From contig JAGGXI010000038.1 of the NCBI GenBank assembly GCA_021163155.1, positions 7,731 through 71,730 on the forward strand: a DNA stretch of 64,000 bases, read 5' to 3'. Shown here piece after piece: positions 53,949-58,600 of this stretch. The notes under the pieces are model-generated. The model was given only the letters and a program-made list of their open reading frames with translations. It searched no databases and was not told the origin of the DNA. Source of the stretch: Candidatus Aerophobota bacterium. GTDB lineage: Bacteria > Aerophobota > Aerophobia > Aerophobales > JAGGXI01. Position 1 is the first letter of the stretch. The number at the start of each line of letters is the position of its first letter. Position numbers and translations under genes: made by a program.

Positions 53949-53975
53949 TGGGTCAGGTCTTCAAACTTGACATAA
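53949..53975 (+). repeat. GGGTCAGGTCTTCAAACTTGACATAAA motif (left boundary of the accessory island) with an adjacent hairpin
   Basis: A direct copy lies at 56600. It is followed by the inverted repeat gtcttcaaacttgacataaat...atttatgtcgaagac. Confidence 0.65.
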
Positions 53976-54114
53976 ATATTAATTTATGGTAATGATAATT
54001 TATGTCGAAGACCATTAAGAATTTCCCATCCAGGCGCCCTTTATCATATCAGTACAAAGCATAAGGAATACAGTAGCCGCGGCAGACATCGACGTCACAA
54101 GAATTCCATCAAAA

Positions 54115-54714
54115 TTGGAAGCGCGAAGTGGACTTGGAAGCCGCGCTGAAGTTATACCAGCCATAGATAAACTTTTTGGCGAGTTATACAAAGACGCTCA
54201 AGAAAACGCACTTTGCATAATTGCGGAATGTTTAATAGCAGAAAGCCCACAATTGGCCGAAAGCGTACAAGAAATTCTTGGAAAAGACGGTTATCAATTC
54301 ATTGATGGTTCATTTGTTCCTGTTGGTTTACTAGATCAAAGAGAGGCCAAGTTCTTGCCTATAAGCTCAGCCACCGAGATTGCTAGAGCTACCTCTCGAT
54401 TAATTAATGGTGATTACAGCGGCGCAATAACATCAGCATGTGGTGCCGTCGATATCGTAATGCAGTAAATCTATAAAGAGCAAGGCCTGGGCGAAGCAGG
54501 TAAAGCCTCCTTTCAGGCTAAAGTGAATACTGCTGCTAAGCAATTACGCCTATTTGAAGCAATGGAAAGCGAATTTCGGAAAGTAGGCATGCCTGAAAAG
54601 GATACATCGGAATTAGTAAAGGAAATGAAAAGTGCCACTAACCATGCAGCACAGGCGTTACAAGTCTTGAGGCGTGCTATGGGAGACACCCATGGCATCT
54701 CTAAGATACAATAG
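54115..54714 (+). pseudogene. GC-rich ORF of unknown function interrupted by an in-frame TAA (54466-54468); the C-terminal segment carries a HEPN-like 'RAMGDTHG' (Rx5H) motif
   Basis: ORFs 54115..54468 and 54523..54714 are in the same frame and separated only by the stop. The frame is also open upstream to 54019 with no start codon there. Confidence 0.4.
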
Positions 54715-54958
54715 CCAGGGATTCTCTAATTCTTCTTTAGTCACAAAACGCCATTTACCGCTATCTTCCAAAACTTTTGTATTCTCATCCAGCAAAGAGT
54801 ATAGAACGATAGTCCTAAAAACACTTCCCAGTCTTCTTACCCACCATTTGTGAATAAAGTAAATCGGCGGTATTTTTCCTTGGCGTGGGCTTCCCGTTCC
54901 GCAATTTCGTTAACCTGTTCAATAGGGAAATCTATTTTTATAGGTCTTTGTTTCACTT

Positions 54959-55351
54959 TTATTCCTCTATTGCCTTTGCGACAATTTCATCTATAACTTT
55001 AATGAATTCCTCAGCTTTCTCAAGCCAGGTCTTGATATCTTCCTTGTTGAATTCAACAAAGTCTTCATAATCTCCCCTTTGCCTGAATTCAAACATTTTA
55101 TTGTAAAAATCTCCGAATTTTTCCCCAACAACACCTGCCTTTACAAATTCTCTATTAAATAAGCTCCTTATTCCACTGTGTTTTGAAGAATAAAGATCCT
55201 TTGTTAGAAGAAGTGCAACAGATTCATAAAAGATGGCATAATATATTCTGTTGACAGTGGCAAACAGTTTTGAATTATCAAACATTATCTTTGCTTCTTC
55301 AAAGGTCTCTTTGGCTCTCTCCCTCCTGTAGTTGATAATTTTCTCTTTCAT
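54959..55351 (-). CDS. HEPN-domain protein (toxin component of a HEPN/MNT pair)
   Basis: The 130-aa product has an 'RQRGDYEDF' Rx4-6-type motif region. Its start overlaps the MNT gene stop by 4 bp. Confidence 0.75.
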   Translation of the reverse strand: MKEKIINYRRERAKETFEEAKIMFDNSKLFATVNRIYYAIFYESVALLLTKDLYSSKHSGIRSLFNREFVKAGVVGEKFGDFYNKMFEFRQRGDYEDFVEFNKEDIKTWLEKAEEFIKVIDEIVAKAIEE

Positions 55352-55695
55352 TTAACAGGCACTCCTTCTTTGTCAATATTCCAGTGAATGGGCATAGCTT
55401 TTGCCAATGGTGATTTCCAGAAGTTGGTAGCTTCTATAAGGATTCCAAATACGACATTGTACTTTAACTCTATTCTGAAGCTCATACTGAAAATCTTTTC
55501 TCTTAAACTGTCATTGACATCACATTCAAGTAGAATTAATACATCAATATCCGATTCCTCATCAAAATCTCCTCTTACCTTAGAACCGTAAAGAATGACC
55601 CCAGCATCTGGGAATCTTTCCAGCACTCTTTTTTTTAACTCCTGTAAAGCTTTTTTCTCATTTTCTTTTAATTTCAACTCTTCTACATTCTTCAT
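55348..55695 (-). CDS. minimal nucleotidyltransferase (MNT, pol-beta superfamily; antitoxin/AMPylase component)
   Basis: 'YGSKVRGDFDEESDIDVLIL' matches the GSx9-13Dx[DE] motif. Confidence 0.85.
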   Translation of the reverse strand: MKNVEELKLKENEKKALQELKKRVLERFPDAGVILYGSKVRGDFDEESDIDVLILLECDVNDSLREKIFSMSFRIELKYNVVFGILIEATNFWKSPLAKAMPIHWNIDKEGVPVK

Positions 55696-56150
55696 TTTCT
55701 TACCTCAATCATCGGAACAAAGCATTCCATCAAACTTAATCCACCATGAAAATATATACTGTATTTTCCCGGTACAGGCCATATATATCGGGATTTCACA
55801 AGATAATAACCAGAAAAATCTACAACATAACCATCTTGCACCAGATGAGAAGCATCTGCTTGATTCATAGAGATGTATCTATTGCTGCCAAAAACATCCC
55901 TTAAAGCTCTCTTCTTGTTATCCGGAACTGGGAAAGCAAATCCAGCTTCTGAACGAATATACCCATGGTCAGATAGAATTATAATCTTGCTGGTTTTAAG
56001 TTTAGTTGCCAATTCCATCACGATTTTTTCTGTAGTTTCATGCATATTCTCAAGAGATGAGATTACAGTATGCCCTACCTGAATTTTGTCCAGCAAACAA
56101 TCCGGAAAATAAGACCAGATATATTTTTCCCTACCCGTAATCCTTATCAT
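55692..56150 (-). CDS. short alkaline-phosphatase-superfamily protein resembling the C-terminal part of a PglZ domain
   Basis: 'ILSDHGY' and the C-terminal 'HGGLSLMECFVPMIEV' fit the PglZ family. The protein is only 152 aa, bounded by a stop immediately upstream. Its start overlaps the MNT gene by 4 bp. Confidence 0.4.
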   Translation of the reverse strand: MIRITGREKYIWSYFPDCLLDKIQVGHTVISSLENMHETTEKIVMELATKLKTSKIIILSDHGYIRSEAGFAFPVPDNKKRALRDVFGSNRYISMNQADASHLVQDGYVVDFSGYYLVKSRYIWPVPGKYSIYFHGGLSLMECFVPMIEVRK

Positions 56151-56185
56151 TTAAATCAATTTTTATTTACTATTTTCATATTGTA

Positions 56186-56413
56186 TTATTTCTCCTCTGG
56201 AATATACACAAGTAACTCACCAACGGAGCAATTTAAAGCCTTGCAAAGTTTTTCGAGAACCTCGTAGGTTACCTGTTTTGCACCTGTGCCACCATTTTTC
56301 CCCATCTTGGAGAGAGCATTAATAGAAATACCTGTCCTCTTGCTTAACTGGGTGTAATTCAGGTCTCTCTCAGCTAAAAGTATCTTTAATCTATTTTTTA
56401 TCATTTTTTCCAT
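56186..56413 (-). CDS. XRE/Cro-C1-type HTH transcriptional regulator
   Basis: 'LSKRTGISINALSKM' forms the HTH. It is the first gene of the minus-strand operon. Confidence 0.8.
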   Translation of the reverse strand: MEKMIKNRLKILLAERDLNYTQLSKRTGISINALSKMGKNGGTGAKQVTYEVLEKLCKALNCSVGELLVYIPEEK

Positions 56414-56599
56414 CCCTAAGTAACTTTTTTATATTTAAAATTTGGATATTTACAATGAGAAATGTATAAAACCACTTGACAAGTATAAACGGATATGGCA
56501 AAATTACAATAGTAGATGTAAATAATTAACTTACAAAATGATTATATACACTAACTATTATAATCCAAATATTTCCTGAGTCAATATTTTCTTAGTATA

Positions 56600-56616
56600 G
56601 GGTCAGGTCTTCAAGA
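56600..56616 (+). repeat. GGTCAGGTCTTCAAGAG motif (right boundary of the accessory island)
   Basis: Direct copy of the motif at 53949. Confidence 0.6.
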
Positions 56617-58075
56617 GGCCTGTTCTCTTATTGAACTCTTTAATTAGTTTATCTATTTTACCAACTTGTTTATGAATATTACCCCAATAGTCTTCACAAT
56701 CATACCATTGAGCATTTAACTCATCCAATTCTTTACCCTGCTGTTCTATCCAGGTGTAGTATTTAAGGTTATGAATTCGTTTTTTATCATAATAAGTTAA
56801 CTCTTCCATATAATCAGTAGATAACCCAAGTAAATGTTGGTGATAGTCAACAGCAGCATCTATCTTGCCATATGAATTATTATATTCTTCTTCCATTTCT
56901 TTTAATCTTGATTTATAAAGCTCCATAGAATCTGTAAATACAGTCATAACTATATCATTCTTAGTTAATTCATAATACTTAGCAAACTTAATAGCCATTA
57001 TTACATTAGCCGCACTGGAAATACCTAATAAAGGCAACTGTTCAATTAATCTCTTAGAAACATTCATTTCTTTTAAATAATCTTTGCCAGCGGGTTCATT
57101 AAATACCCGCACCAGTCCCATGCTATCATTATCATCAACATCAATTATCATATCGGTATTCTTTACATTGTGAATCCAGGGTACGTGTTTGTCACCAATA
57201 CCTTCAATCCTATGAGCACCATAACCATTAGATAATAAAGTTGGACACTGCAGGGCTTCACCAACAACAATTTTACTGGTTGGATACAACTCTTTTAAGT
57301 AATCTCCGCATCCTAAAGTACCTGAAGAACCAGAAGTTAAAACAACTCCGGCATATTTATCATCTGGACCCATTACCTCTTTTAAAACTTCTTCCATAGC
57401 ATGACCGGTAACTTCATAATGCCAGAGATGATTACCAAATTCATCAAACTGGTTAAATACTACTACATTATCTCTTGTTTTTTTTAATTCCCAGGATTTG
57501 TCAAAAATCTCTTTTACGTTGCTTTCACTTCCAGGAGTAGCAATAACTTCTCCTGCCACTTTAGTTAGCCAGTCAAAGCGTTCTTGACTCATCCCTTCGG
57601 GTAAGATAGCAATTGATTCACAGGATAATAAATCAGCATCATAAGCACCGCCCCGACAATAATTACCTGTAGAAGGCCAAACTGCCTTATGAAAAGTAGG
57701 GTCAAATTGTCCAGTAATCAGTCTGGGTACTAAACAACCAAAGGTAGCTCCAACCTTATGAGAGCCGGTTGGAAACCATTTACCCACTAAAGCAATGATT
57801 TTAGCGTCAACTCCTGTAAGTTCTTTGGGTAATTCTATATAATTGACTCCACTATACAAACCACCATTTTTCACTGGTTCATTTTTCCAGGTAACCCTGA
57901 AAAGATTATATGAATTAATGTCCCATAACCCTATATTTTTAAGTTTATTTTTAATCCTATCAGGAACAAGTTCAGGATTCTCCATCTCCTCAAAAGTGGG
58001 AATGATAATATTCTTCTCTTTAGCTCTTTTTATTGTCCTTTCAAGTTGTTCTTCATTAATAGTTAAATCAATCAT
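56603..58075 (-). CDS. PLP-dependent enzyme, fold type II (tryptophan-synthase-beta/threonine-synthase-like) with a roughly 100-aa N-terminal extension
   Basis: 'FPTGSHKVGATFG' is the PLP-lysine motif (compare ThrC PTGSFKDR). Length is 490 aa. Confidence 0.6.
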   Translation of the reverse strand: MIDLTINEEQLERTIKRAKEKNIIIPTFEEMENPELVPDRIKNKLKNIGLWDINSYNLFRVTWKNEPVKNGGLYSGVNYIELPKELTGVDAKIIALVGKWFPTGSHKVGATFGCLVPRLITGQFDPTFHKAVWPSTGNYCRGGAYDADLLSCESIAILPEGMSQERFDWLTKVAGEVIATPGSESNVKEIFDKSWELKKTRDNVVVFNQFDEFGNHLWHYEVTGHAMEEVLKEVMGPDDKYAGVVLTSGSSGTLGCGDYLKELYPTSKIVVGEALQCPTLLSNGYGAHRIEGIGDKHVPWIHNVKNTDMIIDVDDNDSMGLVRVFNEPAGKDYLKEMNVSKRLIEQLPLLGISSAANVIMAIKFAKYYELTKNDIVMTVFTDSMELYKSRLKEMEEEYNNSYGKIDAAVDYHQHLLGLSTDYMEELTYYDKKRIHNLKYYTWIEQQGKELDELNAQWYDCEDYWGNIHKQVGKIDKLIKEFNKRTGLLKT

Positions 58076-58399: not shown

Positions 58400-58600
58400 T
58401 TACCTTTGTAGCATCTGAGTTTGCGCTACAAAGGACGGTAGCCGCAACCTTTACCCCGCTAAATAGTAGTAACATCTAATGGGGTTTAGGTTGTGCTGTT
58501 TTACGCAGGTGGTAGCCGCAACCTTTAGGTTGCGCAAAGAAGACCGTTACACAATAATGCAGGCTCTGAGCCTCGCGGCTACCATTTTTCCTGCAAAAGA
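58400..58600 (+). ncRNA. candidate structured 5' leader RNA or riboswitch upstream of gspE (GC-rich, nested hairpins, ends in a hairpin plus T-tract)
   Basis: - The 17-mer GGTAGCCGCAACCTTTA occurs twice, at 58439 and 58512.
- A hairpin cctttgtagc/gctacaaagg is present.
- A 9-bp outer stem ggtagccgc...gcggctacc is followed by 'atttttcc'.
- GC content is well above the local background. Confidence 0.35.

Follow-up and report, generated by a model that had tools for sequence, protein, structure and literature searches.

A PglZ-MNT-HEPN gene cluster of a Candidatus Aerophobota bacterium is probably an eroded remnant of a Type-3 BREX-Related defense operon

Type-3 BREX-Related (BR) systems, reported in 569 taxa, comprise a DUF499 ATPase, a DUF1156 N6-methyltransferase, a nuclease-less BrxHII-like helicase and a standalone, unfused PglZ, and an iSTAND component is present in 82% of the taxa that carry them (Rakesh and Krishnan, NAR 2026; PMC12839542). 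The same study describes HEPN (sometimes MNT-linked), PIN, Schlafen and OLD/TOPRIM proteins encoded within BREX and BR loci as "auxiliary and backup effectors", and a guard/backup logic has been proposed for these loci (PMC12839542). Modules that pair an MNT nucleotidyltransferase (PF01909) with a HEPN protein (PF05168) are predicted to be type II/VII-like toxin-antitoxin (TA) systems (Anantharaman et al., 2013; PMC3710099), and their experimentally characterized relatives are HepT/MntA (PMC7641770; PMC4621449). Here, we analyze a locus in a 64,000-nucleotide stretch of contig JAGGXI010000038.1 from a Candidatus Aerophobota bacterium (hereafter the window, to which all unqualified coordinates refer), in which four closely packed genes encode an XRE regulator, a 152-aa PglZ-like protein, an MNT protein and a HEPN protein. 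Comparison with related loci leads us to conclude, with a probability that we place at about 0.8, that the locus is an eroded remnant of a Type-3 BR, DUF499-centered, restriction-modification (R-M)-like defense operon.

The four open reading frames (ORFs) were found exactly as an initial annotation of the window had placed and packed them (Table 1), with a short spacer after the XRE gene and ATGA overlaps at the PglZ/MNT and MNT/HEPN junctions, and an in-frame TAA does lie directly 5' of the ATG of the 152-aa ORF. The 152-aa protein gave the anticipated match to the Pfam PglZ profile PF08665 (1.5e-4, profile positions 118-176 of 179), but at 22.3 bits this fell below the 25-bit gathering cut-off; a full-length relative (L023; compared loci and contigs carry L numbers) scored 28.1 bits against the same profile, and the PADLOC PglZ model PDLC02564 matched the ORF at 1.1e-9 (model positions 590-725 of 855). 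Residues S60-D61-H62-G63 and H135-G136-G137 were invariant in the family. The 'SDHG' motif and HGGLSLMECFVP aligned to ADHG and HGGAMLQEVCVPV of the BREX PglZ structure 9nv3, and to DHG and HGGISLEEMLVPV of PorX, upholding the likeness to the PglZ/alkaline-phosphatase clan that had been noticed in these two motifs. When the PDB was searched with a profile of intact family members, 9nv3_C matched at 1.1e-5 (profile positions 150-295), and PorX (7pv7) was matched across the DHG and HGG motifs. Canonical BREX PglZ (BrxZ, ~750-890 aa, e.g., 9nv3) and the PorX domain (7pv7) share with the present family DHG, HGG(x)SL(x)E(x)(x)VP and the cap region between the two motifs. Unlike canonical BREX PglZ, this family consists of a standalone ~300-aa domain without N- or C-terminal extensions, and the window copy has the second half only.

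A search of a 5.8-billion-protein collection returned only 14 relatives, all short and all with PglZ. The fragment also identified 64 loci in species-representative genomes, in most of which the reading frame through the match was 300-334 aa long, and an intact PglZ of this length was present in 14 of the ~21 close-clade lineages. The relatives align as a shared ~300-aa protein, the N-terminal half of which carries 'VMDGMSIRE' and 'IPSDT'; both are missing from the window ORF, which corresponds to residues ~153-304 of the intact proteins (alignment columns 164-318). At the DNA level, homology to the PglZ genes of L001, L007 and L008, intact or partial, begins at 56148, 56123 and 56129, respectively, at or just inside the ATG. 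Judged by these alignments, a standalone ~300-aa PglZ has here lost its N-terminal ~152 residues, leaving its C-terminal half as the 152-aa ORF; the open frame of this ORF and its ATGA overlap with MNT are inherited from the ancestral gene. The upstream stop codon had been taken to mark a self-contained mini-protein, an interpretation that does not hold, since the homologous loci carry the full-length gene, though one of ~300 aa and not ~850 aa. A remnant of a canonical ~850-aa BREX PglZ was considered and ruled out, since the fragment shares 53-72% identity with ~300-aa standalone proteins that have its C-terminal end point, but only 26-30% with L053, L060 and L061, the three long PglZ genes that were recovered. 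NCBIfam BREX PglZ models scored 15-23 bits against cut-offs of 140-400.

A complete PglZ metal-binding active site is absent from the window ORF, which keeps DHG and HGG and has lost VMDGMS and PSDT. VMDG and PSDT align to LIDN and PTAT of PorX, but in a statistically weak stretch, and the last Thr of the PTAT motif is Ala in the 7pvk chain. From this alignment and from general knowledge of the alkaline-phosphatase superfamily, the missing half probably holds the residues matching the first metal-binding Asp and the Thr nucleophile. An AlphaFold2 model of the fragment, built from an alignment of only 11 sequences, had a mean pLDDT of 46.6 and a pTM of 0.40, which is compatible with a fragment unable to fold alone but proves nothing. 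Because the N-terminal half with VMDGMS and PSDT is missing, we infer that the fragment cannot be an active phosphodiesterase or nuclease, and that it is most likely a non-functional passenger. Shine-Dalgarno-like sequences are found before MNT (GAGG) and HEPN (GGAG), and none was found ahead of the 152-aa ORF.

The ancestral operon was reconstructed by tblastn over the 64 loci found with the PglZ fragment, together with the contexts of the relatives. ATPase, PglZ, cargo (where present) and methyltransferase genes followed one another with overlapping junctions, and the full order was (HTH_17)-DUF499-like ATPase-standalone PglZ-variable cargo-DUF1156 N6-methyltransferase-small protein-SNF2 helicase, with the small HTH_17 gene heading the operon in the close clade. 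The relatives' ATPase, of ~800 aa, matched PADLOC HmaC (3e-20), DUF499 (1e-11) and BrxC (1e-7) as well as the SspC model, and the short ATPase of the clade scores under the Pfam DUF499 thresholds. The methyltransferase, of 913-990 aa, matched HmaB (6e-42), DUF1156_MTase (4e-28) and PglXI (1.5e-27), along with Pfam DUF1156 and N6_N4_Mtase. It is followed by a 130-142-aa protein with a match to DUF8076 only; no iSTAND (BrxB/BrxF-like) candidate was identified in the relatives, the DUF8076 protein not having been compared structurally. Wherever contigs extend far enough, an SNF2 helicase lies downstream of the methyltransferase, with SNF2-rel_dom, ResIII and Helicase_C matches and no nuclease domain found.

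By the published defining features of the class, and not by locus lists, the parent operon matches a Type-3 BR system. The relatives share with it a DUF499/HmaC-like ATPase, a DUF1156/HmaB/PglXI-like methyltransferase, a nuclease-less SNF2 helicase and an unfused PglZ, and also the embedded cargo nucleases (HEPN with or without MNT, PIN, OLD/TOPRIM-Gabija, and Schlafen); Type-3 BR is related in turn to 'Hma' (HmaA/B/C) and to Type-3 BREX. The initial annotation had recognized no described system with a PglZ fragment, MNT and HEPN, and had suggested a search of genome neighborhoods for this combination. The combination does recur, but inside an ATPase-PglZ-MNT-HEPN-DUF1156 methyltransferase-...-helicase operon, so that what seemed an undescribed system is an internal segment of a larger operon of the published type. 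ATGA overlaps are likewise already present in the intact operons of L011, L013, L016 and L026, and also in L001; the 4-bp overlaps are inherited and so do not speak for a new four-gene unit. The window holds a degraded copy of a published parent system, and the standalone PglZ and embedded HEPN/MNT effectors are likewise in the literature.

Unlike a functional Type-3 BR member, the window keeps just the C-terminal half of PglZ and an 88-codon methyltransferase stub, and has neither the ATPase nor the helicase nor any iSTAND. No DUF499-type ATPase was found in the 64-kb window by tblastn with the L007 and L008 ATPases, nor was an SNF2 helicase or any methyltransferase sequence beyond the stub, and the locus has none of the canonical BREX (types 1-6) genes BrxC, BrxA, BrxB, BrxL, PglX or long PglZ (about 640-890 aa). 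In tblastn, the stub matched the L001 and L007 methyltransferases (913 and 934 aa) over their residues 1-87, in two frames and at 84-87% identity, and thus consists of the first ~88 codons with one frameshift. The DNA match between the window and L001 runs unbroken from MNT through HEPN into methyltransferase codons 1-88 (69% over 1029 bp). An Abi_C-like gene abuts the stub, taking the place of the remaining methyltransferase, and is a pseudogene as well: Gln128 is changed to a stop (CAA to TAA), and an Ala codon stands where L009 has a GTG start codon. In L009, on a contig 98.4% identical to the window, the Abi_C gene is intact (2086-2721; 211 aa, 98% identical, with a weak Pfam Abi_C match), and the methyltransferase stub has the same end point and a second frameshift.

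In the intact relatives, the MNT and HEPN genes belong to the variable cargo between PglZ and the methyltransferase. This slot is filled by MNT-HEPN in at least 10 close-clade lineages (L001/2, L011, L013, L015, L016, L018, L019, L022, L026 and the window lineage), with identities to the window proteins of 47-78% for MNT and 50-58% for HEPN in L001, L011, L013, L015, L016, L019, L022 and L026 and a more divergent pair in L018. An unrelated MNT and PF05168 HEPN pair is found in the slot of Candidatus Brocadia (L046). Gabija (GajA and GajB) occupies it in L007, L008, L014 and L021, pairs of ribbon-helix-helix (RHH)-like and PIN genes in eight distant-clade loci (L049-51, L054, L056-59), and VapB/VapC in L041 and L043, also of the distant clade, where the PIN matches of the slot pairs ranged from 1e-10 to 4e-18. 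DUF3800, HD, and PHP-ATPase plus Schlafen/AlbA_2 genes make up the cargo elsewhere, and the slot is empty in L012, L017, L023-25, L028 and most of the distant clade. Since MNT-HEPN, RHH-PIN and VapBC all fill the slot, unrelated TA-like RNase dyads recur at one operon position, which offers a lead on how "backup effectors" are coupled to BREX-like systems.

Both proteins of the window pair were correctly named at the outset. MNT matched NTP_transf_2 (1.2e-12; 48.5 bits, cut-off 21), Polbeta (2.8e-6) and the PADLOC candidate PDC-S09 (1.4e-16), and carries the GS-x10-DxD motif GSKVRGDFDEESDID, and HEPN matched PF05168 (1.1e-18; 67.9 bits, cut-off 22). With both domains above threshold, MNT 5' of HEPN and an ATGA overlap, the pair has the properties that mark an MNT + HEPN-T dyad. 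For the PF05168 'HEPN-T' type, Anantharaman et al. (2013; PMC3710099) note in their Table 1 that 'D replaces conserved H ... conserved H elsewhere'; they also describe a Tyr, conserved in the family, as a possible nucleotidylation site, and frequent clustering with R-M operons. The canonical Rx4-6H motif (R.{4,6}H) was found neither in the window HEPN nor in four orthologues, and the window protein and five homologues conserve R-Q-x-x-D-Y-x-D and the His in 'SKHSG'. The pair shares with the family described in PMC3710099 the 5' position and overlap of MNT, the small size of the proteins, GS...DxD, the D in place of the motif His, the Tyr after the motif and an R-M-like neighborhood. In contrast to the HepT (DUF86/PF01934)-MntA family (type VII TA), the window MNT scored only 25.3 bits against the 60-bit cut-off of NCBIfam MntA (NF047752), and HEPN had no NCBIfam match, to HepT (DUF86) or otherwise, and no Rx4-6H. 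RNase activity and AMPylation-based neutralization would for this pair be extrapolations from its relatives.

The XRE gene has a different origin. Its matches to HTH_26 (5.4e-19) and HTH_3 (3.5e-7), which place its HTH domain above threshold, and its position bear out the claim that an XRE regulator heads the window genes, but it was not an ancestral part of the operon: a role as ancestral regulator was ruled out because intact relatives are headed by HTH_17 instead, and because a search as permissive as E ≤ 1 gave no homologue of XRE across the 64 loci of the family. The likelier start is the second ATG, at 56404, which gives 72 aa and aligns with a GTG start in L081; a public protein of 72 aa (P0015, 'helix-turn-helix transcriptional regulator [Candidatus Aerophobetes bacterium]') is 100% identical. 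A homologue with 92% identity lies directly upstream of BrxA-BrxB-(BrxC) in L081. The DNA of 56191-56586, comprising XRE and ~220 bp upstream, is 83% identical to L081 (3685-4077) and 81% identical to L082 (3822-4219), where it precedes a ResIII-like gene, and the homology with both ends at the XRE stop codon. A predicted promoter, TTGACT-16 nt-TATAAT, a strong sigma-70-like candidate with 11 of 12 matches to consensus, lies at the 5' edge of the conserved segment. The non-coding part of the segment is conserved as well as the gene, which suggests that it contains candidate operators. By analogy with these two loci, XRE and its promoter read as a portable controller cassette for defense operons, which would now drive the remnant. 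Controller (C) proteins of R-M systems are small XRE regulators that head restriction-modification operons. The window gene may be their analogue, being a small (72-aa) XRE helix-turn-helix gene with a conserved upstream region whose homologues stand first in defense operons (L081, L082).

Taken together, these comparisons suggest the following history. A deletion or recombination event would have taken away the head of the operon along with the ATPase and PglZ up to about codon 152, and the break would have been joined to the portable XRE-plus-promoter cassette; at the other end, the methyltransferase past codon 88 would have been lost beside the Abi_C gene. The XRE repressor and the MNT-HEPN dyad are the units that may have stayed functional. 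HEPN would be an RNA-targeting toxin, neutralized by the upstream-encoded MNT via complex formation and possibly nucleotidylation, with the pair transcribed from a promoter that XRE, probably autoregulated, would repress. By analogy with related pairs, the dyad may act as a TA or abortive-infection-type module, and we propose that it outlived its host system because of the addictive nature of such pairs.

Table 1. Genes, pseudogenes and other elements of the locus (window coordinates)
Feature	Position	Strand	Description
XRE ORF	56186-56413	minus	75 aa; HTH_26 match
PglZ-like ORF	55692-56150	minus	152 aa; 3' half of standalone PglZ gene by alignment
MNT ORF	55348-55695	minus	115 aa; NTP_transf_2 match
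HEPN ORF	54959-55351	minus	130 aa; HEPN PF05168 match
Spacer with deletion/recombination junction	56151..56185	minus	35 nt; homology to intact PglZ genes starts beside it
Methyltransferase 5' stub, pseudogene	54697..54956	minus	tblastn and three-frame translation
Abi_C-like pseudogene, convergent with operon	54079..54714	plus	comparison with intact L009 gene
Sigma-70-like promoter	56557..56584	minus	consensus scan, upstream of XRE; predicted function

The same four-gene layout was present on at least 8 contigs from different samples (JGI and ENA, separate assemblies), all belonging to one species-level lineage (98-100% identical) and representing three haplotypes with 25-40 differences per 1455 positions. 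An assembly or binning artifact, in which a chimeric contig joins XRE to the middle of PglZ, could be suspected from the metagenomic source and from a junction that falls exactly at the ORF start. We give it almost no credence, because the junction is identical on all of these contigs, including the diverged haplotypes, and those reaching far enough have the same housekeeping flanks. The truncation, being common to the contigs and to the three haplotypes, is therefore real and predates their divergence. In the comparison of the window with L009, the fragment (0.026) matched the methyltransferase pseudogene (0.027) in per-site divergence, and values were lower in MNT (0.015), HEPN (0.018) and XRE (0), which is invariant across the three haplotypes; with a divergence equal to that of a pseudogene, the fragment looks neutral.

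Several points weigh against the locus being such a remnant, or against details of its proposed mode of action. All three haplotypes keep the 152-aa frame open, and its Nei-Gojobori pN/pS over the three haplotype pairs, 0.17-0.37 from 12-19 substitutions in non-independent pairs with transition bias ignored, is no higher than that of MNT (0.06-0.35) or HEPN (0.33-1.17). In 2 of the 3 comparisons, the excess of synonymous changes reaches nominal significance (P = 0.002 and 0.008 with a naive site model), and some constraint on the fragment is possible. In addition, the parent loci were placed in Type-3 BR by its published defining features, and the toxin/antitoxin mechanism is drawn by analogy only, because HEPN is without the canonical Rx4-6H motif and MNT falls under the MntA cut-off. 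Together with the ATGA overlap that ties the ORF to MNT, and with the fixation of the layout in a population for which several sites were sampled, the intact frame and its pN/pS would fit a functional four-gene XRE-miniPglZ-MNT-HEPN module in which the 152-aa protein serves as a sensor, adaptor or decoy for MNT-HEPN. We regard such a module as quite improbable, since the layout occurs in one species-level lineage only, whereas all other relatives have the ~300-aa gene with the ATPase and methyltransferase; the protein lacks half of the alkaline-phosphatase fold along with VMDGMS and PSDT; it has no Shine-Dalgarno sequence and is modeled with low confidence; its overlaps are ancestral; and it diverges at the rate of the adjacent pseudogene. 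A different role for the fragment is suggested by PrrC of EcoprrI, a latent anticodon nuclease of the HEPN family that is encoded inside a type I R-M locus. The parent operons similarly have a HEPN-family gene placed between the modification and effector genes of an R-M-like system, which by analogy suggests guard or backup logic, and the TA-like pairs might be functionally wired to PglZ or the methyltransferase as a PrrC-like guard that acts upon inhibition of the system. The window PglZ half, apparently under purifying selection, would then serve for docking or sensing and keep the orphaned MNT-HEPN regulated after the loss of the other components. The analogy has its limits, in that the proteins are unrelated to PrrC in sequence, MNT is an additional, separate partner and the window has lost the guarded system, and we consider this idea a long shot. 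An unlikely alternative of another kind is that the whole locus is dead, with MNT-HEPN also a decaying passenger in a defense-island graveyard between queA and the pyridoxal phosphate (PLP)-enzyme gene. The neighboring methyltransferase stub and Abi_C are indeed pseudogenes, HEPN has no canonical motif, and between the window and L009 it shows 5 non-synonymous changes against 1 synonymous and a shifted stop codon. On the other hand, GS...DxD is preserved in MNT, which differs between the window and L009 by 4 synonymous changes and only 1 non-synonymous, HEPN keeps all residues conserved among its homologues (VNRIYY, SKHSG, RQxxDY), both genes have Shine-Dalgarno sequences and full-length Pfam matches, and XRE does not vary. 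An eroded Type-3 BR operon with a PglZ passenger and a surviving MNT-HEPN pair remains the reading that we favor.

The locus itself matters little, being one more eroded relic of a defense island. It is of use as a worked example in which a short 'novel' ORF with half a catalytic motif set can be a gene fragment, and in which a defense system can be outlasted by parts that it carried, here an MNT-HEPN pair of addictive nature and a portable controller cassette with XRE. It also illustrates that the PglZ effector is often the first component broken in these systems. Within the close clade, 7 of ~21 lineages (L001, L003, L007, L008, L022, L026 and window/L009) have a disrupted standalone PglZ. 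The lesions are of several kinds: the gene has lost its N- or C-terminal part or an internal segment, or its frame is shifted by a single base. In L022, PglZ and MNT are joined by a frameshift into a single frame of 421 codons, and in L026 the frameshift lies at Lys-Lys codons just before IIILSDHG. The ATPase is broken too in L001, L003 and L020. These lesions suggest that the PglZ effector is frequently inactivated, and perhaps that it is subject to phase variation. PglZ is reportedly toxic without its methyltransferase, and its often being the first component broken is consistent with such toxicity.

Two further arrangements were seen in the cargo slot. In L020 and L021 (10423-14304), a ~905-aa protein with PHP and ABC/AAA_21 ATPase domains is followed by a ~385-aa Schlafen/AlbA_2 and HATPase_c_4 protein, and in L021 this cargo sits upstream of the additional Gabija pair. 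In L018 (781-2339), a Methanosarcinales metagenome-assembled genome, a TnpB/OrfB-like ORF of 363 aa, which carries CSRCG...CSDCG zinc-ribbon motifs, interrupts the HEPN gene of the embedded pair.

The 2.7-kb island in the window lies between housekeeping genes, with queA and tgt at one end and the PLP-enzyme gene and genes for type IV pili at the other, and its GC content, 0.36, equals the window average of 0.36. Scans of the whole window for tRNAs and Rfam families found nothing, and thus no tRNA-linked integration site. A repeat search revealed no convincing direct or inverted repeats bracketing the island, only a palindromic element of ~65-80 nt with the core GGTCAGGTCTTCAAACTT...AAGTTTGAAGACCTGACC between queA and Abi_C (53950-54012, ~65 nt). 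A half copy follows the PLP-enzyme gene (56600-56625), where L009 has a complete extra copy (123-186), and the element reads as a repeat bordering the island, like a repetitive extragenic palindrome (REP) or miniature inverted-repeat transposable element (MITE), or like a bidirectional terminator. On contigs identical to the window (L074-76, L080), Abi_C is called as ORFs of 117 and 63 aa. The non-coding segment 58252-58610, upstream of a pilB-like gene, is 81% identical to L009 2826-3039, which flanks Abi_C, so that either L009 differs in arrangement on that side or the segment is a dispersed repeat. The segment, which has no Rfam match, contains two exact copies of GGTAGCCGCAACCTTTA at 58437 and 58511, 74 nt apart.

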